NCBI GenBank assembly: GCA_964577785.1
Contig: CAZOAK010000001.1
Coordinates: 22,398 to 86,397, forward strand
Direction of reading: 5' to 3'
Length of the DNA stretch: 64,000 nt
Origin: an uncultured Candidatus Saccharibacteria bacterium
GTDB lineage: Bacteria; Patescibacteriota; Minisyncoccia; Phycocordibacterales; CAIRYW01
This document shows, piece by piece, positions 672 to 55,096 of the stretch. The notes beneath the pieces were generated by a model. The model made no database searches. It saw nothing but the letters and a program-made list of their open reading frames with translations, and was not told the DNA's origin. Position 1 is the first letter of the stretch, and each line of letters starts with the position of its first letter. A program made the position numbers and the translations under genes.

Positions 672-701
672 CATTTACCCATTCATACGAATGGGTAAAT
701 G
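672..701. repeat. Perfect 30-nt palindrome, family C (catttacccattc-atac-gaatgggtaaatg). It acts as a terminator-like hairpin after the RhuM gene
   Basis: 13-bp stem with a 4-nt loop; a near-identical second copy lies at 48871-48900. Confidence 0.7.
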
Positions 702-742
702 CATTGTGGGTGTTTGTTGGGAGGGGAGAGTGTTTGTTTATT

Positions 743-4265: not shown

Positions 4266-4850
4266 ATGACTTATATTCTAAATCTTTTGAAAAAACACAG
4301 GTTCGCAATACTCAGCGCCATTATTATTTGTAGTCTTGTCGCAATTGTTGAACTCAGTACTGGGCGATCTCCATTAGGTCCTGATGGTAAATTCGGTTGG
4401 TGGGATGGAAATATTTGGGGTAGTGAGAATTCTCAACGAGTGGCTGATGCATATTCGTTTTCTCACATAATTCACGGAATCTTATTTTATGCTTTTCTTT
4501 GGCTTGTAGCACGGAAGCTCCCAATGAAATATCGTTTTGTCATTGCGCTTATTATGGAGGCCGGTTGGGAACTTCTAGAAAATTCTCCATTTATAATTAA
4601 TCGATATCGTGAGGCGACAATCGCACAGGGTTATATCGGAGATAGTGTTTTGAATTCTGTGTGCGATGTTCTAATGGTTGTTATAGGATTCCTTATTGCG
4701 CGATTCTATAAAGTCTGGGTAAGTATCGCGCTTATAATTATTATGGAGCTCGGTTGTCTGTTTTGGATTCGAGATAATTTAACTTTAAATGTGGTGATGC
4801 TAGTTCATCCAGTAGAATCAATCAGGGATTGGCAGTCTGAGGGACATTAA
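4266..4850 (+). CDS. DUF2585-like polytopic membrane protein
   Basis: Four to five TM helices. The 'GWELLENSPFIINRYREATIAQGYIGDS' region resembles UPF0314/DUF2585. Confidence 0.55.
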   Translation: MTYILNLLKKHRFAILSAIIICSLVAIVELSTGRSPLGPDGKFGWWDGNIWGSENSQRVADAYSFSHIIHGILFYAFLWLVARKLPMKYRFVIALIMEAGWELLENSPFIINRYREATIAQGYIGDSVLNSVCDVLMVVIGFLIARFYKVWVSIALIIIMELGCLFWIRDNLTLNVVMLVHPVESIRDWQSEGH

Positions 4851-4977
4851 ATTAAGTATTCAATTTTCAAGTTATCAATTTTCAATTCTGTAAGGGTAAC
4901 ATGATTAGTACGTCTTAAATTATGAGATATAAAATTATTACATAATTATTATTAACTACTTAACTTTTTCTAACGGG

Positions 4978-6933: not shown

Positions 6934-7152
6934 GTGATTCATTCTATAATTACTATGTCAGATTTACTATTTAATCACACTAATTTTATGATGAAATATT
7001 ATGGACATGGATTTGAGTATGGTGGAATGATGGGGTCATCAATTATTTGTTCCTTGATTTCTGCGGTTGTATTTATTGATCTCGTACTTTTGGGAATTTG
7101 GCTTTGGAAGAAAATAGAAAATGAAAAGAGTAGAAATCACAAGTCAGAATAA
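6934..7152 (+). CDS. Small membrane protein
   Basis: One TM helix 'ICSLISAVVFIDLVLLGIWLW'. A terminator follows immediately. Confidence 0.4.
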   Translation: MIHSIITMSDLLFNHTNFMMKYYGHGFEYGGMMGSSIICSLISAVVFIDLVLLGIWLWKKIENEKSRNHKSE

Positions 7153-7187
7153 AAAACAAAACCGCCTTAAGGCGGTTTTGTTTTTTG
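7153..7187 (+). terminator. Rho-independent terminator
   Basis: aaaacaaaaccgcc-ttaa-ggcggttttgtttt followed by TT. Confidence 0.75.
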
Positions 7188-16974: not shown

Positions 16975-18060
16975 ATGCAAGACATATCTAAATGGGAATT
17001 TCATACTGACTCAAAGCAGGCCTGGGACGCTATGCTTCTTGATATTTCTACCGCCAAAGAAAGCATTGATCTAGAGCAATTTATTCTCGGGTATGATGCT
17101 ATTGGAATAAAGTTCCTTGATGCGCTAAAAGCCAAATCTCTGGTCGGAGTAAAGGTTCGAATCTTTTGTGATGAAGTAGGAAGTCTTTCTTTACGTAGAT
17201 CAGGTATTGCTACTTCCCTTTCTGAAGCTGGGATAGAAATAAAGTTTTTTAATTCTGTAATACCTTGGAGTCCAAATAAGGAAAGTTTATGGTTTTTTCG
17301 TGATCACAAAAAACTTTTAATAATTGATAAAAAGATTGGGTTTACTGGAGGTGTCTGTTTAGGTGATGAAATGCGTGATTGGAGAGAAAGCTCTGTTAGA
17401 ATCGAGGGACCTGTGGTTGCTCAGATGACAGAATCTTTTGACGTTATGTGGAATAAGAAGTATCACGAGTTTAAGTTTTATTTTAAGAAAAAAAATAAAA
17501 ATTTAACACAAAACTACAGCTTTAATTATATTACTAATGCTCCCTTGCCTCGAAAAAGATATATGTACAGGGAGCTTATTAGAGCAATTAAAAGTGCCAA
17601 ACATTATATTTATCTTACGACCCCTTATCTACTCCCAGACTCTCGCCTACTTAGAAACATAAAAAGAGCAGCTCGAAGTGGTGTTATGGTACGTATTCTT
17701 GTTCCGATGAATACAAACAGTCGTCTAGTTAATGTTGGATCTGGGACCTTCTTTGACGATATGCTCGAGGCTGGGATTCAAATATTTAGATACAATGGAG
17801 CAATGATTCATTCTAAAACCGGTGTGATAGATGGAGTGTGGTCTACGATTGGGAGTCTTAATCTAGATAACCTGAGTCTCAGATATAATTTTGAGGGTAA
17901 TATTGTGTCGACTGATAAGAGTTTTGCTTTTGAGCTTGAAAGGCAGTTTCTCGATGATTTAAAGATTTCTACTAGATTAACTAAGGAGGAATGGAATAAG
18001 CGGGGCTTGATCAGAAGAATATTTGAGATTCTGATTTGGCCGCTTAGGAAACTGCTTTAA
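16975..18060 (+). CDS. Phospholipase D / cardiolipin-synthase-family protein (two HKD motifs)
   Basis: 'RDHKKLLIIDKKIGFTGGVCLGD' and 'HSKTGVIDGVWSTIGSLNLD'. Confidence 0.8.
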   Translation: MQDISKWEFHTDSKQAWDAMLLDISTAKESIDLEQFILGYDAIGIKFLDALKAKSLVGVKVRIFCDEVGSLSLRRSGIATSLSEAGIEIKFFNSVIPWSPNKESLWFFRDHKKLLIIDKKIGFTGGVCLGDEMRDWRESSVRIEGPVVAQMTESFDVMWNKKYHEFKFYFKKKNKNLTQNYSFNYITNAPLPRKRYMYRELIRAIKSAKHYIYLTTPYLLPDSRLLRNIKRAARSGVMVRILVPMNTNSRLVNVGSGTFFDDMLEAGIQIFRYNGAMIHSKTGVIDGVWSTIGSLNLDNLSLRYNFEGNIVSTDKSFAFELERQFLDDLKISTRLTKEEWNKRGLIRRIFEILIWPLRKLL

Positions 18061-18107
18061 AATACAGGTGGTAAGTTGGTTAGCTAGTTAGGTTGCAAGG
18101 AAAAACA

Positions 18108-18138
18108 AACAGCACCGCGGCTTTGCCGCGGTGCTGTT
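18108..18138. terminator. Palindromic terminator, family A (aacagcaccgcggc-ttt-gccgcggtgctgtt); bidirectional
   Basis: 14-bp GC-rich stem flanked by A-run and T-run. An identical 31-nt copy lies at 21768-21798. Confidence 0.8.
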
Positions 18139-18185
18139 TTTGAGTTTAAAAGCTTCTAAGCTCTAAGCTTATTCCTTTCTAAGCT

Positions 18186-18608
18186 TTATTTAGTATTCAA
18201 CGCAACTTCTGTTGATCTCCAACAAGGGCTAGATGAGTTCCACGGTACTGTACCTTCTCTGTCATAAAGATATTTAGCATAAGCTAAGTTACCTTCTAGA
18301 GTCATGATATCCATACCAAGCTTTTGTGATGTTTTCAGGTGATAGTAGGTGTTAACCTGCATCACTCCTACGTCATCATTGTTCACTTTTCCTCGAAAGA
18401 CAGTTACTCCGTCTTTTTCGAATTGTCGGTTCCTTGATTCGCACCAAGCAACTTTCGCCATTATAGGATCATTCTTGAAATACTCCTTAACCATTTCCTC
18501 GACTGATTTCGGTACTTTAACAACAGGAGTTGATGCTAAAATATTCACACTTGTTGATGCCGTGGCATCGATAGGATTGGTGTTTGGTATCATAAAAGAT
18601 GAAGCCAT
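18186..18608 (-). CDS. Lytic transglycosylase (SLT-domain) protein
   Basis: 'AWCESRNRQF...GVMQVNTYYH...AYAKYLYD' matches the SLT catalytic-Glu and GxMQ motifs. Confidence 0.6.
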   Translation of the reverse strand: MASSFMIPNTNPIDATASTSVNILASTPVVKVPKSVEEMVKEYFKNDPIMAKVAWCESRNRQFEKDGVTVFRGKVNNDDVGVMQVNTYYHLKTSQKLGMDIMTLEGNLAYAKYLYDREGTVPWNSSSPCWRSTEVALNTK

Positions 18609-18859
18609 AAGACCAATACCTGCTAAGAAACTAACGATAAGCTATTTTATTATATTTTAATTCTGGAATGCAGACCTGTTCTGGAGGTGTCGGTATAAAA
18701 ACAAAAAATCAGTGACTACTGATTTATGCTTAATATACTAGCACATCTTGGCCATAAAGTCAACTTAAACCATTGATTTTTGAACCTGTAAAGCTTTAAA
18801 ATATGTTGTAAAATAAGGGCATTTTGGAATCGTACAATTGACAAAATACGAGCTTTATT

Positions 18860-20119
18860 TTAAAATATTTGCCACAAAACAGCGCCTGCGACAACAATCA
18901 TCAAAATTGTGGTAAACCAGCCCAAAAATTGCCCTACCCTACCGTTTTTATAGGGTCCCATAATACTAGAATTGCCTGCCAAAAGCATTATAAAGACCAA
19001 AGCAATGGGTGCAACAAGTGCATTGGCAACAGATGTGTATACCAAAGCTTTCATAGGATTCACTCCAAAGAAATTAAATAGTAATCCAAAGAGAACAGAG
19101 AGACCTATAATAAAATAAAACATTTTAGCATCCGAAGGTTTACGGTAGAGACCCTCCTTGTAGTCAAAGGTTTCAGTAAATATGTATGCTGAGGATGCGG
19201 CGAGTACCGGTATTGCCAAGAGTCCTGTACTTATAATTCCAAAGGCGAATAGTATGTATGAGAAATTACCAGCAAGAGGTCTCAGTGCTTCAGCTGCTTC
19301 TTTGGCACTTGTGATGTTTGTAATTCCTGCTTTAAACAGTGTTGAGGCACAAACGGTAATAATAAAAAACATAACGATATTAGAAAGAAACATTCCTCCC
19401 CAAACATCTATGCGCATTTGCTTCATGTTCTTCGGTCCATCTTCAATTCTAGACTCTACCGTCGTTTCTCCCTTACTTATTTCATCCTCAACCTCTTGCG
19501 ATGTTTGCCAGAAGAATAAATAAGGAGAAATAGTTGTTCCAAGTATGGCCGCAATTATAATCACACTATCTCTATTCCATTCAAATGAAGGTATGAAAGT
19601 ATTGTAAACCAACTCCGTCAAATCGAGATGGAGTATCAAACCGCAAAATATGTATGCCAAAAGTGACATTGCAAGCCATTTAAGATATCTCGCATATTTG
19701 TCATATGTCACAAATATTTCCAAGTAAACTGTGAGGAGGGAGATTATTAAGAGCGGAATCCAGAATGGTGATGCTGGAATAAACATGGTGACTACTTCTG
19801 CCATAGCCCCGAGATCTGCCCCAATATTTAAGGTGTTTGCAAGTATTACAAAGAATCCACAAAAATACAGCCACTTCTTTGAGAAGTTTAGACGGATATT
19901 CTCAGCGAGTCCGCGTCCTGTAACAAGAGCGATTCGCGCACAAATTTCTTGTACCACTCCCATAAGAATGAATGAGTAAGGGGCAAGCCAAAGAAATTTG
20001 AATCCAAACTGTGCTCCGGTTTGTGAATAAGTGGCAATCCCAGATGGGTCGTCATCAGCCGCTCCAGTTGTGACACCAGGACCAATCATTCCCCACCATT
20101 TTTTGATTTTATTAAGCAT
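18860..20119 (-). CDS. mntH: NRAMP-family divalent metal (Mn2+/Fe2+) transporter
   Basis: 'GPGVTTGAADDDPSGIATYSQTGAQFGF' Nramp signature; about 11 TM helices. Confidence 0.85.
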   Translation of the reverse strand: MLNKIKKWWGMIGPGVTTGAADDDPSGIATYSQTGAQFGFKFLWLAPYSFILMGVVQEICARIALVTGRGLAENIRLNFSKKWLYFCGFFVILANTLNIGADLGAMAEVVTMFIPASPFWIPLLIISLLTVYLEIFVTYDKYARYLKWLAMSLLAYIFCGLILHLDLTELVYNTFIPSFEWNRDSVIIIAAILGTTISPYLFFWQTSQEVEDEISKGETTVESRIEDGPKNMKQMRIDVWGGMFLSNIVMFFIITVCASTLFKAGITNITSAKEAAEALRPLAGNFSYILFAFGIISTGLLAIPVLAASSAYIFTETFDYKEGLYRKPSDAKMFYFIIGLSVLFGLLFNFFGVNPMKALVYTSVANALVAPIALVFIMLLAGNSSIMGPYKNGRVGQFLGWFTTILMIVVAGAVLWQIF

Positions 20120-20148
20120 GCCTTATTATAGCAAAGATTACATTTTAT

Positions 20149-20742
20149 TTATTTTTGCAGCCATGGAATCTTAAATTCTTTAAATTCAGGGAACATTGGT
20201 TTGTCATTAAATAATCTTGAGAAAGCTTCTACTTCCCATTTGGCACCGTTTATTGCAATATGAGGTTTTGGTTCTGTGGGTATACCCACATATTCCATTA
20301 TCTTATCTGAATCTAGGTCTGTTCTATGGTTTGCATGTGGCACAGCAAGTCCTCGCTTGTTCATGTGGAAATATACGATTGAGTGAAGGTCAATAACTCT
20401 TTTTGGAATTGAGATATTGATTCCTGCCCTTTCAGCGCCTGCGATGAGAAATGCTACATCGAAAGAAGGGTTTTGGCCAGCAACAGTGTGGTCATTTTTA
20501 TCCTTAATCCAATCTAAAAAATCTTTAACAATTTCTGCCTCACTTTGTTTAGATTTATCTAGCAGCTGTTCGTGTGTCATGCCATTCACCATCAGTGACT
20601 CTTCTTCAATTCTAGCTCCCTCAAAGATATAACACTCCTTGAAGAAAGTATCCTTAGGATTATCAAAATCAATTGCTCCAATAGATACCAATGAATGGTA
20701 TCGTGGATCTGTGCCTGAAGTTTCTACGTCAACGATTAGCAT
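20149..20742 (-). CDS. DEDDh 3'-5' exonuclease (DnaQ-like fold)
   Basis: 'LIVDVETSG' Exo I and 'HTVAGQNPSFDVAFL' Exo II-like motifs. Confidence 0.65.
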   Translation of the reverse strand: MLIVDVETSGTDPRYHSLVSIGAIDFDNPKDTFFKECYIFEGARIEEESLMVNGMTHEQLLDKSKQSEAEIVKDFLDWIKDKNDHTVAGQNPSFDVAFLIAGAERAGINISIPKRVIDLHSIVYFHMNKRGLAVPHANHRTDLDSDKIMEYVGIPTEPKPHIAINGAKWEVEAFSRLFNDKPMFPEFKEFKIPWLQK

Positions 20743-20865
20743 TTGGGTTCAGGAATTAAGTATTAAGAATTATGTATTAATTATAGATTAGAAAATGGAA
20801 TGTGGAAAGCAGGTTAAATAGTAACTATGTTGCAATTTAAGTTGAGTGTAAGATACGTTGACCAC

Positions 20866-21360
20866 CTACATCCCTTTACAATTACTCGCCTTCGCAAACC
20901 CTGCTTTCTCAGCTTCGAGAGCGCTTGCAAAAAATACTTTGTTTTTAGCCAAAATTCTTTCCGCTGAACCACACCAAGGGAGGTAGTATTTTGTTCCATT
21001 TTTGGATGCTACTACCTGCCCGCCATTGTTTGAGACTGCAGTCGATGGCAGGCGGGCCTGTCCGCCATCGGCCGAGTCAGCAGGCGACGACAGGCGGGCC
21101 TGCCCAGTGATAGTCTTATCCGAATTATCGATTTTGGTTAGTGGTACAGTATTCGAAGAGGTTTGTTTCGCGGATGTGTCTAGGGTGTTGTTTTCGAATG
21201 TTATATCACTGCTATCGCCTACCCCTTTTAATACGGAATATTTACCCAATAGGAATGAGGAGATTGCCACCGTAGCTATAATAATTGACACCCCTATCTC
21301 TTCTGGGTGTCTTATTATAAACAGCTTGATTTTGTTCAAATATCGGGTTATTATACTCAC
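20866..21360 (-). CDS. Membrane-anchored protein with a C-terminal Ada-type Zn-binding-like domain, interrupted by a GC-rich repeat insert
   Basis: N-terminal TM. C-terminus 'YYLPWCGSAERILAKNKVFFASALEAEKAGFAKASNC'. Internal 'GQARLSSPADSADGGQARLPST' is encoded by GC-rich tandem units. Confidence 0.45.
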   Translation of the reverse strand: MSIITRYLNKIKLFIIRHPEEIGVSIIIATVAISSFLLGKYSVLKGVGDSSDITFENNTLDTSAKQTSSNTVPLTKIDNSDKTITGQARLSSPADSADGGQARLPSTAVSNNGGQVVASKNGTKYYLPWCGSAERILAKNKVFFASALEAEKAGFAKASNCKGM

Positions 21361-21449
21361 TAAGTTAAGTTAGATCCTATAAGGTTACTTTTATGGTGTA
21401 TCTATTATAAACGAGAAAACAATTTTAAGATAATTATAATTTAAATCAT

Positions 21450-21725
21450 ATGGCAACCAAAAAAGCCGGCGGTACCGCCAAAAACCTGACAGATTCAAAT
21501 CCAAAGTTCCTTGGAGTGAAGCTGTCGGATGGAGAAACAGCAAAAATCGGGGACATCATAGTTCGCCAGAGAGGAACAGCAGTTATGGCGGGAAAGAATA
21601 TAGGTGTAGGAAAGGATCATACACTATTCGCACTTAAGCCAGGGATTGTAGAATTCAAAAACAAAAGAAAACTAAATTTTGATGGAACAAAGACTGTGAG
21701 AAAGATTGTTAACATTAAAGCTTAG
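21450..21725 (+). CDS. rpmA: 50S ribosomal protein L27
   Basis: '[21 protein letters not shown]...VRQRGT...GKDHTLFAL'. Confidence 0.9.
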
Positions 21726-21767
21726 CAGGAAAGAAGCTTAGGGGCTTAGAAGGAAAACAAAATAAAA

Positions 21768-21798
21768 ACAGCACCGCGGCTTTGCCGCGGTGCTGTTT
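21768..21798. terminator. Palindromic terminator, family A (identical copy)
   Basis: Identical 31-nt sequence to 18108-18138. Confidence 0.8.
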
Positions 21799-21801
21799 TT
21801 G

Positions 21802-21839
21802 ATTGAATACTTGAAAATTGAGACTTGAATACTTCAATT
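21802..21839. repeat. Solo copy of the 33-nt element attgaatacttgaaaattg-N-gacttgaatactt
   Basis: Same element as the inverted pair flanking the four-helix-bundle gene (26777-26805, 27181-27213). Confidence 0.7.
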
Positions 21840-22281
21840 AAATTGCTTCAACAGTCAATTTAATAACTGCTTTCTTATCCCCCACCCTAACCACAAGATC
21901 ATGTGGTCCTGTTTCTTTGATATGTTTATCTAGTACAAGAAAATCAGGATGGATATCTGCGCCAATAGATTTTTTGATTGCTTCAATAATCTCGTTCGCA
22001 TGGAGTTGTGCGAACAGGTGACCTTTACTATTAGCTTTGGCTTTTATAACAACCTCTTTCTCGTTAATTTGAGCTAGATTTTTGATCAACAAATCTTCTT
22101 GTATTTTCTTTTCAGCAAGCATTATTGTTTTGAGGCTCTCAATCTTTTTTATCTCAGAATCTGTTGCAATTTTTGCAGATCCTTGCGGTATTAGATGGTT
22201 TAGAGCAAACCCATCAGCCACATTTTTGATATCAAATTTTCTTCCAATTTTCGCAACGTCTTTAAGTAGTATTACTTTCAT
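21838..22281 (-). CDS. rplI: 50S ribosomal protein L9
   Basis: 'MKVILLKDVAKIGRKFDIKNVADGFALNHLIP'. Confidence 0.85.
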   Translation of the reverse strand: MKVILLKDVAKIGRKFDIKNVADGFALNHLIPQGSAKIATDSEIKKIESLKTIMLAEKKIQEDLLIKNLAQINEKEVVIKAKANSKGHLFAQLHANEIIEAIKKSIGADIHPDFLVLDKHIKETGPHDLVVRVGDKKAVIKLTVEAI

Positions 22282-22292
22282 TTCGATTATAT

Positions 22293-23516
22293 TTAATTTT
22301 TCTTTGCTAATTCTAACGCTTTGTCTAACTGAGGATCTTTTTTTGCAGCAATATCCTCTGGTGTTAACTCAACGATGTGATCCGGTACAATCCCGTTATG
22401 AGATATTGAAGTTCCTTTCGGTGTTAGCCATCTTGCGATTGTAACCTTTAACATTGAATCGTCTGTAAGTGGTATTAATTCTTGTACAGATCCTTTACCG
22501 TAAGTTTTTGTTCCAACAAGGACTGCTTTGTCATAATCCCTCAAGGCACCAGCAAATATTTCCGATGCAGATGCAGAATTTTCATTTACCAACATCACTA
22601 TTTTTACATTGTTGTTAAATAGGTTGTATCCTTTACTTCTATATGATTTAGGATCCTCTTTTTTACCAAAATCTTCAGTCACAATTACTTTACCTGTTCC
22701 TAAAAACCAACTTGATATATCAACAGCTGCTTCTAGGTATCCTCCTGTATTATTTCGGAGGTCTATTATTAGTTTTGAGTCTTTGTTATCAACGAATTCT
22801 CTGAGTGCAGATCTAAATAGTTCAGGAGAATTAGATGTGAAGCTTGTAAGCTTGATGAGGAAAACACCATCCTCTAATCTCTCTGTCTCAATAACTGGTA
22901 CAGTCACGGAGTCTCTCTTTATGGCCATCTCAACTTTAGACTTACTACTTCCTCTAACAATAACTAAATTTACTATTGTCCCCTTTTTTCCTCTAATTAG
23001 AGACACGGCCTCATCAATATCAATTCCTGACATATTTTTTCCATTAACCTCTGTTATGATATCTCCCTCTGTAACACCATTTTTTTCTGCTGGGGAATTT
23101 TTAATTACCGAAGTTACTGTTAAAACACCTGTTTTCATTGAAAGTACTGCTCCAATTCCATCCACACTACCTGATAGGTCGGTGTTGAAGCTTTTTGTTT
23201 CCTCTGGTGGAAGATATGTTGTGTATGGATCACCCAATGACTCAGCCAATCCCTTAATTGCTCCATAGATTTTATCTTGCTCGCTAGTTGTTGTAGCCGT
23301 ATCAATGTATCTATCTTCTAGTATGTCCCACGCTTTCCAAAAGGCTGACATGTCGATACTATTTCGGTCACTTGTTAAATTATTTGTATAGGTACTTGCA
23401 ATTGCTGTTTTGTTTGCGTCAACATATAGTCCAGCAAAAAAAGAAACTGTTACTAAAAAAGTGGTTCCTACTATAATTCCAGCTCTTTTCCCCAAGTTTT
23501 TTATTGTTTGATTCAT
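22293..23516 (-). CDS. ctpA: S41 carboxyl-terminal processing protease with a PDZ domain
   Basis: N-terminal TM, a PDZ ('GDIITEVNGKNMSGIDIDEAVSLIRGKKGT') and the S41 catalytic region 'LVNENSASASEIFAGALRD'. Confidence 0.85.
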   Translation of the reverse strand: MNQTIKNLGKRAGIIVGTTFLVTVSFFAGLYVDANKTAIASTYTNNLTSDRNSIDMSAFWKAWDILEDRYIDTATTTSEQDKIYGAIKGLAESLGDPYTTYLPPEETKSFNTDLSGSVDGIGAVLSMKTGVLTVTSVIKNSPAEKNGVTEGDIITEVNGKNMSGIDIDEAVSLIRGKKGTIVNLVIVRGSSKSKVEMAIKRDSVTVPVIETERLEDGVFLIKLTSFTSNSPELFRSALREFVDNKDSKLIIDLRNNTGGYLEAAVDISSWFLGTGKVIVTEDFGKKEDPKSYRSKGYNLFNNNVKIVMLVNENSASASEIFAGALRDYDKAVLVGTKTYGKGSVQELIPLTDDSMLKVTIARWLTPKGTSISHNGIVPDHIVELTPEDIAAKKDPQLDKALELAKKN

Positions 23517-23596
23517 TAGGCAATTATGTCAAAAAAAACGTGCCTGTGCAACTTATTCAAATAATAGTATAATTCTCTTTATCTACAGAAACTTGT

Positions 23597-25072
23597 ATGA
23601 CAATACATCTATACAACACATTAGGTAAAACTAAGCAAGAATTCAAACCGATAAACGAATCTGAGGTTCGTTTGTATTCTTGTGGACCGACTGTCTATTA
23701 TGATGCTCATATTGGCAATTTACGCGCTTATGTGTTTGTTGATATATTGAAAAGAACTCTCAAATACAATGGGTACAAAGTTAAGCATATTATGAATGTG
23801 ACAGATATTGGGCACCTGACGAGTGATGCAGATGATGGTGAGGATAAAATGGTCAAAGCACTCAAACGAGAAGGTAAAGAAATGACTTTAGAAAATATGC
23901 GTGGAGTTGCTGACTTCTATTTTGAAAAATTTAAAGTAGATCTAGAAAAACTAAATATAGAATTCCCAGATAAATTCCCTTTTGCAAGTGATCATATTAA
24001 AGAAAGTGCTGGCATGATTTCTGTTTTAATTCAGAAGGGATTTGCTTACCAAACTAGTGATGGAATATATTTTGATACTTCAAAAGACGAGAATTATGGC
24101 AAACTTGGTGGAATTTCAAGCGACAATGACCACTCTCGAATCGAACAGAATACTGAAAAGAAAGATTACAGAGATTTTGCGTTGTGGAAATTCACCCGCC
24201 TGTCACCCGCCCGACATGCCTCAGACGGCAAGTCTTTGGCGGACGGGTCGCCTGCAGGCTCAGTCAATGGCGGACAGGGTGACGAAAGTGGGCTTGGATT
24301 TGATGCTTCGTTCGGTAAAGGCTTTCCTGGATGGCATATAGAGTGTTCAGCAATGAGTGAAAAATATCTCGGTGTGCCTTTTGATATTCATACAGGAGGG
24401 ATTGATCATATACCCGTTCATCATAATAATGAGATTGCCCAGACAGAGTGTTCCACAGGTAAAACTATGGCGAATTTTTGGATGCATAATGCTCATGTGA
24501 CCATAGGTACGGACAAAATGGCAAAATCCGGCGAAAATTTTATAACTTTAAAAACTCTAGGTGAAAACGGGATCCATTCTCTCGCCTATCGTTACTGGCT
24601 TTTGACTTCTAGATATTCCACGAGAGTGGACTATTCATTAGAAGCGATCAAAGCTTCTCAGACTGCATATGAAAAATTACAATCATATTTTAATACTTTA
24701 GAAAATAATGGTAGTCAGACTACCGTAGATAAAGGGTACGGCGATAGATTTGTTGAAGCAATAAATGATGATTTGGATACCCCAAAAGCTTTGGCTCTGG
24801 TTTGGGAATTGGTGAAGGATTCTAATATAGGTGATGCTGAGAAAAGAGCAATCTTGCTAGATTTTGATAAAGTTTTAGGACTCATGTTTGGGTCAGTGGT
24901 TAAAGAAGAAATAGTGGTTCCAGAAGATGTAAAGAGGCTCCTAGAGGTGCGTTTAAAGGCGCGCAGTGAAAAGAATTGGGCGGAATCAGACAGAATTCGA
25001 GATCAAATAAAATCTCTTGGATTTGAGGTAAAGGACGTCGGAGACATTCAAGAGTTGACAAAATCAATATAA
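23597..25072 (+). CDS. cysS: Cysteinyl-tRNA synthetase carrying an in-frame GC-rich insert of about 25 aa
   Basis: 'HIGNLRAYVFVD' (HIGH), 'KMAKSGENF' (KMSKS), the 'GWHIECSAM' zinc site, and a C-terminal DALR region. The insert 24190-24285 encodes 'SPARHASDGKSLADGSPAGSVNGGQGDESG' between FALWK and GWHIECS. Confidence 0.9.
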   Translation: MTIHLYNTLGKTKQEFKPINESEVRLYSCGPTVYYDAHIGNLRAYVFVDILKRTLKYNGYKVKHIMNVTDIGHLTSDADDGEDKMVKALKREGKEMTLENMRGVADFYFEKFKVDLEKLNIEFPDKFPFASDHIKESAGMISVLIQKGFAYQTSDGIYFDTSKDENYGKLGGISSDNDHSRIEQNTEKKDYRDFALWKFTRLSPARHASDGKSLADGSPAGSVNGGQGDESGLGFDASFGKGFPGWHIECSAMSEKYLGVPFDIHTGGIDHIPVHHNNEIAQTECSTGKTMANFWMHNAHVTIGTDKMAKSGENFITLKTLGENGIHSLAYRYWLLTSRYSTRVDYSLEAIKASQTAYEKLQSYFNTLENNGSQTTVDKGYGDRFVEAINDDLDTPKALALVWELVKDSNIGDAEKRAILLDFDKVLGLMFGSVVKEEIVVPEDVKRLLEVRLKARSEKNWAESDRIRDQIKSLGFEVKDVGDIQELTKSI

Positions 25073-26758: not shown

Positions 26759-26776
26759 ATGCGCTTCGCTTAATTA

Positions 26777-26805
26777 TTCAAGTTTCAATTTTCAAGTATT
26801 CAATA
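26777..26805. repeat. 33-nt element, left copy, in inverse orientation
   Basis: Its reverse complement reads attgaatacttgaaaattgaaacttgaat. Confidence 0.7.
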
Positions 26806-26813
26806 AATACGAA

Positions 26814-27173: not shown

Positions 27174-27180
27174 TTATATT

Positions 27181-27213
27181 ATTGAATACTTGAAAATTGT
27201 GACTTGAATACTT
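27181..27213. repeat. 33-nt element, right copy
   Basis: attgaatacttgaaaattgtgacttgaatactt. Confidence 0.7.
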
Positions 27214-27217
27214 GGGC

Positions 27218-28600
27218 TTAAAAAGCCCCATCATCCTTTGTAAAATCTCCAATGTTTGATTTCTCTACACTCAGGAATGTTGTACGTTCAGCATCAAAGT
27301 ATAGTTCTATACTGCCTACTGGACCATTTCTGTGTTTGTCCACATGTATCTGGGCAATATTTTGTTTGTCAGAATCCTCCCTATATTTATCTTCACGGTG
27401 AATAAACATAACAACGTCAGCATCCTGTTCGATTGATCCAGAGTCTCTAAGGTCGGAAAGCTTTGGTCGCCCTGAGCCACCTCTTTTTTCAACGTCTCGA
27501 GAAAGCTGAGATAGTGCAAGTACCGGCACTTCAAGCTCACGAGCTAGCTGTTTTAGTGAACGAGAAATTTCAGTAATCTGCTGAACAACATTATCATTAT
27601 TCTTACTACCTGTCGGTGTTATTAGTTGTAGATAATCCACAACAATCATGCCAAGTCCTTTTTCTATCTTGAGTTTTCTGGCCACTGAACGCATTTTAAG
27701 GATATTATTCCCAGGCTGGTCATCAATATAAATAGGTGCTTTAGATAGCCGTTCAATAGAACCTCGGAGCTTTTCAAAATCGTGCTCGATAGATAATTTA
27801 CCTGTTCTGAGCTTCCATGCATTAACCATCGAATCAGCAGACAACATACGATCTACAAGTTGTTGGGAACTCATTTCCAGAGAAAATATTCCCACTGGAA
27901 TGTTGTGATGTACCGCCGCTTGTCGAGCAATGTCCAAAGCTAGAGCAGTCTTACCCATCGAAGGACGCGCTGCTAGAATTATTAGATCAGCCTTTTGAAA
28001 ACCAGAAAGCATATCGTCGAGTGCCTTGAATCCTGTTGGCACTCCACGAAGTTCATCCGTGGATTGATGAAGTCTTTCAAGTCTCTCCCATGCTTCATCC
28101 AGAGTTCCACTAAGTGGTATGAATTTTGCAATGTTAGATGAATTGCTAATATCAAAAATTTGTTTTTCTGCCCTGTCTAAAAGATCATCTGTATTTCCAC
28201 CTTCATCATAACCAAGCTCACTAATATCCTCCGCAGCAGAAATGAGACGGCGATGTGTATGTTTCTTTTTGACTAGCTCAGCATAGTGTCTAATGTTAGA
28301 TGCTGGAGGAATACTTTGGACAAGTTCTGCGAGATAACTTCTACCGCCAATTTTTTCTAAAATATTTTTATCAGAAAGCCTAGATGACATTGATATCATA
28401 TCTATAGGATCGCCTCTTCCGTTTAGCTCAAGCATTGTTTCAAAAATTGCTTTATGTTTATCAGCATAAAACGTTTCTGGAGTTAGAATATCTGTCACCT
28501 CATGGATAGCATCACTGCTCCGCATGATACCACCAAGAAGTGCCATCTCACTTTCTAGATGTTGAGGAGGGACGCGCATGTTTTTTTGAACTTTTTGCAT
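27218..28600 (-). CDS. dnaB: Replicative DNA helicase DnaB
   Basis: The canonical N-terminus 'MRVPPQHLESEMALLGG' begins at the internal Met (start set to MQKVQKNMRVPPQ at 28600). Walker A 'ARPSMGKT', plus 'HREDKY' and 'QLSR' motifs. Confidence 0.85.
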   Translation of the reverse strand: MQKVQKNMRVPPQHLESEMALLGGIMRSSDAIHEVTDILTPETFYADKHKAIFETMLELNGRGDPIDMISMSSRLSDKNILEKIGGRSYLAELVQSIPPASNIRHYAELVKKKHTHRRLISAAEDISELGYDEGGNTDDLLDRAEKQIFDISNSSNIAKFIPLSGTLDEAWERLERLHQSTDELRGVPTGFKALDDMLSGFQKADLIILAARPSMGKTALALDIARQAAVHHNIPVGIFSLEMSSQQLVDRMLSADSMVNAWKLRTGKLSIEHDFEKLRGSIERLSKAPIYIDDQPGNNILKMRSVARKLKIEKGLGMIVVDYLQLITPTGSKNNDNVVQQITEISRSLKQLARELEVPVLALSQLSRDVEKRGGSGRPKLSDLRDSGSIEQDADVVMFIHREDKYREDSDKQNIAQIHVDKHRNGPVGSIELYFDAERTTFLSVEKSNIGDFTKDDGAF

Positions 28601-28802
28601 AGGTCTAATTTTAGCACATCGACAAAATATGGAAGTATTGAAAGTCTCACAAACTGTGGGAGAAATGGGGACAACTGGTACTCCAGATTGCACACTTTGT
28701 GAAAACACGAAAATTTCTGGCTCAAAATTTTCTCCGTACGTCGCCGTCGCTCCTCTCGAGGTTTTCAAAAGTATGTAATCTTCCGTTTGAAGGTTTAATA
28801 CA

Positions 28803-28833
28803 AACAGCACCGTGGCAAAGTCACGGTGCTGTT
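28803..28833. terminator. Terminator-like hairpin, family A variant (aacagcaccgtg-gcaaagt-cacggtgctgtt)
   Basis: 12-bp stem. Confidence 0.5.
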
Positions 28834-28913
28834 TGTAATCATAGAGCTCAGAAAGTTTATTAAAAAACACCACACTTCTTGAGGAAATGGGTGCTTGAGA
28901 TTTTGATCTGTGT

Positions 28914-29369: not shown

Positions 29370-29533
29370 CTGAGTAAATAGACCAAAATGTTAACGAACA
29401 GTACACCAATCGCGGTGGACTTTGCCGTCAGCACCCTGGATTTGGTTTGAATTACAGCAATACTACATAACAGGTTGTAAGTTAGCAAGCTGGTCAGCCT
29501 GCCTGTCGGCAGACAGGGTTGTGGAAAAACAAA

Positions 29534-48870: not shown

Positions 48871-48900
48871 CATTTACCCATTCGTACGAATGGGTAAATG
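48871..48900. repeat. Palindromic repeat element, family C (second copy)
   Basis: catttacccattcg-ta-cgaatgggtaaatg. One substitution compared with 672-701. Confidence 0.7.
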
Positions 48901-48946
48901 CCCTAGTTCATAAAAGGCCATCAGTAGATGATACCCGTGAGCGGTA

Positions 48947-54634: not shown

Positions 54635-54718
54635 CAATTAATCAATATCGATGATAGGAACTACTTGACCCTAATTGGAAATTGATAATTGAATACTTCT
54701 GCTTAAGTGCTTAAAAAC

Positions 54719-55096
54719 TTAAGCAGTTTTTCTCCTATGTATCATTACTCTATTACCATCCGGATCTTCAATTGTCACCATTTGGCATGATGGAAAATCC
54801 ATTATTTCACCAACAAATATAATATTATTTTCTTTAAGAATTTTGACGGCTTCTTCAAAATCAATAACCTCTAGTGCTACCACGCCTCCTTCTCTGCCTG
54901 GCATAAAATTAGTAGCTCCTTTACCTATTGCAAGTGTATGAGGGCCAATTTCATATTCAATAAATACCATTTCAGTTGTATCATCACCAAAAACACTTGT
55001 AGGCTTTAAACCTAAAATATCTTCATAAAAATATTTGGCTTTTGAGACATCTGTAATTGAGTAACTTACAAACGCTATTTCTTTTACCTGTATCAT
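54719..55096 (-). CDS. VOC (glyoxalase/bleomycin-resistance) family protein
   Basis: 'IAFVSYSITDVSKAKYFYEDILGLKP...MVTIEDPDGNRVMI'. Confidence 0.8.
   Translation of the reverse strand: MIQVKEIAFVSYSITDVSKAKYFYEDILGLKPTSVFGDDTTEMVFIEYEIGPHTLAIGKGATNFMPGREGGVVALEVIDFEEAVKILKENNIIFVGEIMDFPSCQMVTIEDPDGNRVMIHRRKTA

Follow-up and report, generated by a model that had tools for sequence, protein, structure and literature searches.

Rickettsia palindromic elements (RPEs), reportedly described by Ogata et al. in 2000, are short palindromic repeats of about 100–150 bp that lie in frame inside open reading frames (ORFs). They share several traits with a 42-nt element that we describe here from two genes of the window (the whole stretch of 64,000 nucleotides of DNA that was analysed): orthologues of the interrupted genes lack the repeat, copies are tolerated in loops, and the hosts are bacteria that depend on other organisms and have small, AT-rich genomes. 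However, RPEs carry a CGTC tag (PMC3733652; RPEs are also discussed in PMC1458961 and PMC1166351), whereas the ends of the present element are CCCGCC...GGCAGG, and RPEs are restricted to Rickettsia whereas the element is spread across Patescibacteria. The likeness to RPEs drawn in the first-pass annotation thus holds for behaviour but does not extend to membership, because size, end sequences and host range all differ.

A second class of repeats, REP sequences and REPINs (PMC3733652, PMC2817692, PMC3116915), comprises imperfect, G+C-rich hairpins of 20–40 nt with an unpaired terminal tetranucleotide, for which GTAG and CGTC tags have been defined and occurrences inside genes have been reported (PMC3733652). 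The 42-nt element resembles them in this architecture, in having many copies that are mostly outside genes with some intragenic, in forming clusters, and in the absence of a described target duplication. Nevertheless, its tag is CCCG; its copies occur as singletons, head-to-tail tandems or nested units rather than as head-to-head or tail-to-tail pairs; and its sequence hardly varies throughout a phylum, whereas REPs are specific to a lineage at the level of the genus. REPs also have a cognate RAYT gene flanked by the repeats, whereas no RAYT gene among the 244 loci listed is flanked by the element.

In transposons of the IS200/IS605 group and their miniature derivatives, the left and right subterminal hairpins are distinct, and insertion takes place 3′ of a fixed target of 4–5 nt. 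The 42-nt element has in common with them a hairpin-bearing single strand, an imperfect and strand-specific hairpin, and precise insertion without target duplication, but it forms one hairpin only, and its 5′ flank is not conserved (a GGGCAG-like motif precedes just 8% of copies). Classical MITEs combine terminal inverted repeats with target-site duplication, whereas duplication is absent here (loci L061, L056 and L105). CRISPR arrays alternate regular repeats with unique spacers, whereas the block in the first of our two genes consists of two tandem units whose interiors follow a consensus, with other copies dispersed. A looser likeness exists with PARCELs (PMC2996958), 25-residue amphipathic domains that form tandem tracts in proteins of unknown function. 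These are also dyad-symmetric coding repeats of distantly related microbes with small genomes, and are thought to be mobile within and between genomes, but the present element encodes a unit of 14 residues, and its copies are dispersed one at a time through housekeeping genes and non-coding DNA. Among these systems, the element is best filed with the small palindromic mobile repeats, being REP- and RPE-like in behaviour while having the defining features of neither.

Two genes carry blocks of a 42-nt unit

The window has a G+C content of 31–42% per kilobase, against which a block of 70–78% G+C stands out within a small ORF (Table 1). This block had been noticed as a GC-rich tandem repeat read on the minus strand of the ORF, and it is real: positions 21015–21098 hold two units arranged head-to-tail, with 76% identity in an ungapped alignment, although each unit measures 42 nt and not the 45 nt originally given. 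Its motifs are far more frequent than shuffled sequences predict, with three occurrences in the window of the junction motif GGCAGGCGGGCCTG (0.02 expected) and nine of CCTGYCCGCC at up to one mismatch (0.9 expected). The minus-strand translation within ORF 20866..21360 is as first reported (...TGQARLSSPADSADGGQARLPSTAVSNNGGQVV...) and appears in its protein context as ...TGQ-ARLSSPADSADGGQ-ARLPSTAVSNNGGQ-VVASK.... The sequence CCTGCCC adjoins the tandem pair at 21099–21105.

At its N terminus, the host protein of this first block has a hydrophobic stretch that looks by eye like a membrane anchor; a variable linker follows, and then a small C-terminal domain that contains Cys. The gene was earlier designated Ada-Zn-like, but the matches of the C-terminal domain to Ada_Zn_binding (E = 0.003) and sunset (E = 0.008) are both below threshold.

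The same sequence family recurs in cysS, as the first-pass annotation had recognized, in the form of an 84-nt block at 24195–24278 that encodes an insert between DFALWKF and the GFPGWHIEC segment. In this block, one unit is nested in another, with the inner unit sitting after the 11th base of the outer unit as judged against the family consensus. The subfamily ends of the inner unit are also found at loci L006 and L068. The cysS copy was originally thought to be oriented oppositely with respect to the gene that hosts it, which is incorrect. On the chromosome the copy does run the other way, but so does cysS itself when compared with the small ORF. In the nhmmer search, the units at 21 kb map to the minus strand and that in cysS to the plus strand, the host genes occupy the same respective strands, and both blocks are therefore read in the sense direction and in the same frame (xRLSSPA...GGQ).

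Table 1 Coordinates of the two blocks, their host genes and related features in the window
Feature	Coordinates	Strand	Details
Host gene 1, 164-aa protein	20866..21360	-	84-nt insert within linker
Unit 2 of tandem pair	21015..21056	-	CCCGCCTGCCATCGACTGCAGTCTCAAACAATGGCGGGCAGG, translated as (A)RLPSTAVSNNGGQ; nhmmer E = 1e-10
Unit 1 of tandem pair, first in gene orientation	21057..21098	-	CCCGCCTGTCGTCGCCTGCTGACTCGGCCGATGGCGGACAGG, translated as (A)RLSSPADSADGGQ; nhmmer E = 3e-7
GGGCAGG heptamer, adjoining the 5′ side of unit 1 (gene orientation)	21099..21105	-	Taken as native target-like motif
Host gene 2, cysS, cysteinyl-tRNA synthetase	23597..25072	+	28-aa insert
Outer unit, 5′ part	24195..24205	+	CCCGCCTGTCA; rebuilt by eye from family consensus
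Inner nested unit, divergent subfamily	24206..24247	+	CCCGCCCGACATGCCTCAGACGGCAAGTCTTTGGCGGACGGG
Outer unit, 3′ part	24248..24278	+	TCGCCTGCAGGCTCAGTCAATGGCGGACAGG; nhmmer E = 2e-5
Possible related mini-form, intergenic	29498..29517	+	CCTGCCTGTCGGCAGACAGG; tail CCTG, stem CCTGTC/GACAGG, loop GGCA

Orthologues without the blocks

The closest syntenic relative (locus L122, the contig of P0002) carries genes for Nramp, RNase T, the small ORF, L27, L9, CtpA and cysS, and lacks both blocks. Its small-ORF orthologue encodes 135 aa, compared with 164 aa in the window, and is without the 84 nt; the empty site reads GAAGGGCAGG|TGGTCGC (GGGCAGG|TGG). The heptamer at 21099..21105 in the window is identical to the 3′ end of the element itself, and we take it to be a native target-like motif because it is also present at this empty site.

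For cysS, an alignment of 24 CysS sequences reveals that the closest relatives, P0002 to P0007 (70–78% identity), have four residues where the window protein has 32. An exact look-up of the window CysS in the contig index gave no match; judged by its CysS relatives, the window derives from a member of the Patescibacteria (CPR) close to Candidatus Taylorbacteria or Paceibacterota. Removal of 24195–24278 from the window gene leaves WKFSDESGLGF, and the corresponding segment of P0011 is WKFSDESGIGF. In a further CysS (P0008, 67% identical), one 14-aa unit, ARLSSPAGEINGGQ, lies elsewhere in this region, just before GDGFPGWHIEC; judged by its letters, the DNA of this insert, GCCCGCCTGTCATCGCCTGCTGGCGAAATCAATGGCGGACAA, is plainly the same element as the window units.

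Because the syntenic relative lacks both blocks and another cysS orthologue carries a single unit elsewhere, the comparison indicates that the blocks in the small ORF and in cysS are insertions and not ancestral sequence. It could instead be argued that they represent an ancestral or convergent low-complexity protein repeat, or an assembly artefact, given that the Pro/Gly/Ser-rich peptide is linker-like and that all sources are metagenome assemblies. We regard this as extremely improbable, as there are orthologues that lack the segment, the DNA is conserved as well as the peptide, including in intergenic, antisense and other-frame copies, and the element is present in independent projects and in the output of different assemblers. 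Insertion is therefore the reading adopted below. The reconstructed empty-site allele of the window cysS gave no matches in the metagenome scan, so that recent movement in the window lineage is only a possibility.

Whether inserts fall in surface loops was asked at the outset. In the AlphaFold2 model of CysS, residues 203–230 have pLDDT values below 50 and lack secondary structure between well-modelled segments. This modelled, unstructured segment would fit a surface loop; low pLDDT is, however, also expected where the alignment does not contain the segment.

A family of copies across Patescibacteria

Further copies, whose existence had been anticipated, were sought with two pattern scans. Scan 1 covered one genome per species with the pattern CCCGCCTGYC-N20-ATGGCGGRCA and returned at least 120 loci. 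Its high-GC matches are chance matches to conserved coding sequence and were discarded; examples are IlvD/Edd-type ‘PAMCDGVTQG’ genes (Sphingobium and Castellaniella) and a conserved Selenomonas/Centipeda gene. The remainder comprises at least about 90 copies in low- to mid-GC contigs that bear the labels of many Patescibacteria groups. Scan 2 covered metagenomes with the interior positions fixed and positions 1–9 and 38–42 left free, and yielded at least 81 unique true loci. Together, the two scans provide at least 182 unique loci after removal of chance matches in high-GC DNA.

The family consensus is CCCGCCTGCCAnCGCCTGnnGnCGnAGnCnATGGCGGGCAGG, with near-invariant ends CCCGCCTGCC...GGCGGGCAGG (CCCGCC...GGCAGG). 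In scan 2, each of the free positions is at least 85% conserved, and all except positions 9 and 38 are at least 94% conserved. Since this conservation is observed with the termini free, the choice of the first pattern does not explain the invariant ends.

The labels of the matching contigs include Saccharibacteria, Doudna-, Levy-, Roizman-, Nealson-, Zambryski-, Komeili-, Magasanik-, Curtiss-, Yanofsky- and Portnoybacteria, and Paceibacterota, along with a few metagenome-assembled genomes (MAGs) labelled otherwise, among them Yes46-11, binchicken_co110_548 and Lentimicrobium KA12. The true matches listed reside in Patescibacteria-type contigs and in one contig labelled Lentimicrobium. Labels were taken from the record titles of MAGs, and those of Actinomycetota, Gammaproteobacteria and Lentimicrobium could be errors of binning or labelling.

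A scan of 2.9 million viral contigs with the family pattern gave no matches, and blastn searches with two consensus units gave no phage match and only chance matches to plasmids, in GC-rich genes. Because these searches of viral contigs, phages and plasmids are empty beyond chance, nothing points to a phage or a plasmid as the vector. Matches to Rfam 15 are weak and attributable to chance (E values of 0.67 or above, far below gathering scores), and a search of the literature that included sequence strings found no description of the 42-nt element. A search of a protein database with concatenated 14-aa insert peptides yielded 59 candidates, none of which was scored.

The window also contains a shorter, intergenic sequence that is possibly related (Table 1). 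Its stem is that of the 42-nt units in their T9:A38 variant, and it displays the same C-G to T-A change as the window's own 42-nt units. A canonical 20-nt mini-form, CCTGCCTGCCGGCAGGCAGG (CCTG-CCTGCC-GGCA-GGCAGG), is present at five other loci.

A strand-specific hairpin with an unpaired tail

Each unit is made of an unpaired 4-nt CCCG tail and a 38-nt bulged hairpin, formed by one specific strand. The supported register pairs nucleotides 5–10 with 37–42 (CCTGCC/GGCAGG), 13–16 with 33–36 (CGCC/GGCG) and 21–23 with 27–29, and 92.7% of these positions are paired. A 2-nt bulge separates the CCTGCC/GGCAGG and CGCC/GGCG helices, whereas the inner helix is small and variable. The CCCG tail is present in at least 95% of the copies listed.

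This register is carried by double changes that preserve pairing. At pair 9:38, C-G is found in 74 sequences and U-A in 10, and the metagenome set of scan 2 exhibits the same alternation (CG 68, TA 7). Pair 7:40 is U-A in 87 sequences and C-G in two, pair 22:28 is G-C in 26, C-G in 22 and U-A in nine, and double changes also occur at 21:29. The observed covariation score was reached in none of 500 shuffles, and controls in which the register was slid scored far lower. Thermodynamic folding alone distinguishes the units only moderately from shuffled sequences. A full 12-bp palindrome, which the ends resemble, was considered as an alternative structure and rejected, as it is without covariation and 87 of 89 sequences cannot form its pair 3:40.

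Exact ends and insertion sites

The clearest view of an insertion is provided by a CRISPR array with a 47-nt repeat and an adjacent cas1 gene, located on the contig labelled Lentimicrobium (L061). Its empty repeats read GTTGTGAATTGCTTTTGAATTGTATC|TTTGAAATATTGAGCACAAC, that is, ...GTATC|TTTGAAAT..., and six filled repeats carry a 41-nt copy with the ends given above exactly at the bar. This comparison of filled with empty repeats fixes the exact ends of the element and demonstrates that no target-site duplication is produced. At two other loci (L056 and L105), copies lie in arrays with a 7-nt period that is intact once the copies are removed.

Among the copies listed, the 5′ flank reveals neither a consensus nor a conserved target tetranucleotide, and the first base 3′ of the element is T or C in 86–89%. 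The 5′ flank matches GGGCAGG at five or more of seven positions in eight of 97 copies, compared with 1.1% of control positions, and the small-ORF site in the window is one of these eight. Tandem copies are found in the small ORF of the window and at L183, L232 and L094, and nested copies are found in the window cysS and at L204, L225, L234 and L220/L189. The element lands disproportionately beside or inside sequence that resembles itself, which creates tandem arrangements such as that in the small ORF and nested arrangements such as that in cysS. Insertion into the loops of existing hairpins is weakly enriched (flanking stems of at least 6 bp accompany 3.3% of copies and 0.9% of controls), and we make no claim of such targeting.

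Some copies reside in spacers between tRNA genes or directly upstream of a tRNA, and at L179 two copies interrupt a tRNA-like gene (pseudo-tRNA), the first behind the acceptor stem and the second within the D-loop. Placement next to tRNAs is what might be expected if the hairpin were mainly a signal of use to the host, such as a site bound by a conserved Patescibacteria protein or a hairpin for RNA processing or stability, and if the copies inside genes were by-products. Base-pair covariation, the persistence of the ends across lineages when they are unconstrained by the search pattern, and the fact that no transposase has been identified would all fit such a signal. However, the context and orientation of copies are inconsistent, and copies are present in essential coding regions at positions that differ between species, in CRISPR repeats and in a pseudo-tRNA. 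Tandem and nested pile-ups are typical of insertion rather than of placed signals, and close relatives lack the copies found in the window. We therefore judge a mainly host-serving hairpin to be improbable, and the element appears to be selfish rather than useful. Nevertheless, a repeat that is purely selfish would not usually stay near-invariant throughout so deep a phylum, and the hairpin could have a host function.

Reading frames of copies within genes

The proposal that the element inserts in frame into ORFs is upheld, whereas spread that is specific to ORFs is not, because about two-thirds of the copies lie outside ORFs of at least 200 codons among the matches listed. The 59 of 182 unique loci listed that fall within such ORFs constitute a lower bound, as many contigs are short. 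These copies are distributed unevenly among frames: 35 are in sense frame S2 (xRLPSPxGxxxGGQ), 10 in antisense frame A0 (PARHxLxxQALAGG), seven in antisense frame A2 (CPPxxxxSGDGRR), and three each in antisense frame A1 and sense frame S0. Only one is in sense frame S1, which has a TGA in most copies; the other five of the six frames are open in most copies. The host genes include those for CysS, the N-terminal region of RpoD and a helicase-like protein of 1005 aa (L068) with three copies, no two of which share both frame and orientation. The excess of S2 may reflect selection for a flexible, hydrophilic peptide, and the frame bias would thus be set by selection and not by targeting.

In-ORF copies that were inspected are read through in frame without a stop, and variants of 41 and 47 nt, whose lengths are not divisible by three, were seen only outside ORFs. 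Inserts that go untranslated do have parallels, as with the GC-rich inserts of some yeast mitochondria and the bypassed segment of T4 gene 60, and the inserts described here might likewise be removed from mRNA or skipped by the ribosome. A stable, conserved hairpin within essential genes, tRNA-like genes and CRISPR repeats is compatible with this idea, and translation is deduced from sequence constraints rather than directly. However, the stop-containing frame is used by only one of the 59 ORF copies, and constraints on frame, stops and length are expected only if the inserts are translated. Removal or ribosomal bypass is thus very improbable, and translation of the inserts is expected. An example of a peptide that spans an insert is ...SPAGSVNGGQGDESGLGF....

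Possible means of mobilization

We consider it very probable that each block arose by the insertion of mobile hairpins and is translated in frame, a judgement that excludes the identity of the enzyme involved. The element would be a very small, non-autonomous mobile DNA of canonically 42 nt, with a CCCG tail and an imperfect, G+C-rich hairpin. It inserts precisely and without target-site duplication, usually with a pyrimidine as the next base. Given a length that is a multiple of three and five open frames in most copies, insertion into a gene would cause neither a frameshift nor a stop, and copies in loops or linkers would survive and be translated as a 14-aa, Pro/Gly/Ser-rich peptide (xRLPSPxGxxxGGQ).

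An enzyme that acts in trans on single-stranded DNA would move the element. Because a tailed hairpin is inserted precisely, in a strand-specific manner and without duplication, single-strand transposition of the HUH/Y1 type is the best match, and a transposase of this type, as for REPs, is the best available analogy, one that we offer tentatively and consider rather unlikely to be the actual mechanism. The window contains no Y1 transposase. Y1 genes are present at six of the 244 loci listed (L023, L138, L141, L144, L241 and L244), of which five are RAYT-like and one is of the IS200 type, with Pfam Y1_Tnp confirmed for the three that were scanned. Three of the six genes lie within 500 nt of a copy.

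These genes would fit a more specific account, in which the element is a REP-type repeat moved, as a folded single strand, by a RAYT-like Y1 (HUH) tyrosine transposase that would recognize the unpaired 4-nt tail and the imperfect hairpin. An unpaired tetranucleotide joined to an imperfect hairpin fits the definition of REPs (PMC3733652), insertion proceeds without target duplication, and covariation supports the register of one strand only. However, the RAYT-like genes at L244, L138 and L141 have unrelated palindromes of their own on their flanks, and the element flanks none of the six Y1 genes among the 244 loci listed. The tail, CCCG, differs from both GTAG and CGTC, dimers are arranged head-to-tail or nested and not head-to-head, the sequence is phylum-wide and not lineage-specific, and a conserved target tetranucleotide is absent. 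Movement by a RAYT in the manner of a true REP is thus unlikely. The nearby RAYT-like genes were rejected as the mobilizer on account of their different flanking palindromes, and are retained solely as an analogy.

A broader conjecture, which we hold to be possible but short of probable, is that the element represents an undescribed, phylum-wide and codon-compatible micro-transposon of 42 nt. Its ends would be essentially invariant across hundreds of Patescibacteria lineages and at least one genome labelled Bacteroidota, it would enter essential genes, tRNA genes and CRISPR repeats without duplication, and it would be moved by a conserved enzyme other than a classical, REP-flanked RAYT; or else these minimal genomes would have co-opted the hairpin as a conserved DNA or RNA signal.

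Implications for Patescibacteria

The combination of a length of 42 nt, compatibility with coding sequence and near-invariance across Patescibacteria makes this element notable. The genomes of these bacteria are tiny and gene-dense and leave little room for selfish DNA; an element that is short, largely free of stops and of a fitting length can hide within coding sequence, and so shows how mobile DNA can persist in such genomes. Near-identity across the phylum, whose members are hard to culture, implies either a conserved mobilizing enzyme or frequent exchange between lineages. The element can corrupt the annotation of tRNAs and CRISPRs, and it explains odd, GC-rich inserts of 14 aa that might otherwise pass for functional motifs. 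The 42-mer could serve to mark Patescibacteria contigs, and its copies are a concrete source of the lineage-specific insertions that are often found in Patescibacteria proteins.

Possible repeated insertion at the same position

Copies of the 42-nt element lie at matching positions in the proteins of distant genomes. An orthologous protein of roughly 735 amino acids carries a copy at one position, after 'GQ', at L014, L037 and L120/L168 (loci from the collection scans), and the small sunset-like protein carries one directly before [VI][VI]ASK both in the window (21015-21098) and at L073. These copies are of different interior subtypes, which suggests that the element was not inherited at these positions but inserted there more than once, at a GGGCAG-like hot spot. 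Among CysS orthologs, P0058, P0020, P0022 and P0033 carry unrelated insertions of 10-45 residues in the loop that also holds the window's cysS insert, between WKF and GFPGWHIEC (alignment A1, columns 230-320); this loop is a general insertion hot spot.

Elements in a CRISPR array and a tRNA-like gene

The hairpin element sits at an identical point in six repeats of the L061 CRISPR array, and one further copy is truncated. At L179, a tRNA-like gene is split by two element copies, one of 42 nt and one of 47 nt, and ARAGORN makes no tRNA call for the interrupted gene.

Possibly related and separate palindrome families

A 20-nt palindrome, CCTGCCTGCCGGCAGGCAGG, recurs in Patescibacteria (L058, L094, L143, L173 and L243), with a variant in the window. 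Its stem is that of the 42-nt element, from which it differs by a 4-nt loop and CCTG tail; it could be a related mini-family or a form of the element with an internal deletion. Three RAYT-like genes in Patescibacteria contigs are each bordered by palindromes of their own that are specific to the lineage, CACAGAGGTTAAACCTCTGTG, CTTGGAAGCTTAGCTTCCAAG and TTGCGAGGTCCGACCTCGCAA among them; these REPtron-like units are distinct from the 42-nt element.

Three almost identical intergenic hairpins in the window look like terminators and, having one sequence in common, form a second repeat family. AT-rich arrays, present in both orientations, often adjoin these hairpins. In other genomes, many of the 42-nt elements likewise have short arrays of this periodic kind beside them. 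Two copies of a longer palindrome, 48 kb apart, share 97% identity.

Locations of repeats and associated features
Feature	Locus	Positions	Remarks
CRISPR array, 47-nt repeats	L061	4263-5335	cas1 adjacent; Lentimicrobium-labelled MAG
tRNA-like gene	L179	2620-2735	minus strand; GCGCCCA-TAGCTCAGTGG-TAGAGC...
20-nt palindrome variant	window	29498-29517	CCTGCCTGTCGGCAGACAGG
G+C-rich hairpin, then T run	window	18101-18143, 21760-21802, 28796-28838	AAACAGCACCGCGGCTTTGCCGCGGTGCTGTTTTT; intergenic
Weaker match to AAACAGCACCGCGGCTTTGCCGCGGTGCTGTTTTT hairpin	window	7145-7187	
AT-rich array, 7-8-nt period	window	4838-4886, 21799-21858, 26772-26807, 27179-27237, 54672-54722	TTGAATAC / TTGAAAAT
Near-perfect 31-nt palindrome	window	672-702, 48871-48901	CATTTACCCATTCGTACGAATGGGTAAATGC
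RAYT-like Y1 transposase gene	L244	5950-6390	
RAYT-like Y1 transposase gene	L138	6889-7371	
RAYT-like Y1 transposase gene	L141	12600-13019	
Rp_sR47 match (Rfam)	window	22466-22607	plus strand

Genomic setting

The match to Rickettsia sRNA47 (score 62.4; gathering threshold 60) lies antisense within an S41 peptidase (ctpA-like) gene, so that the conservation of the coding sequence, and not an sRNA, is its most likely source. Cumulative GC skew reaches its maximum at about 17000-24000 of the window, where gene orientation also apparently switches, which suggests that a replication terminus or origin lies near both element-bearing loci.
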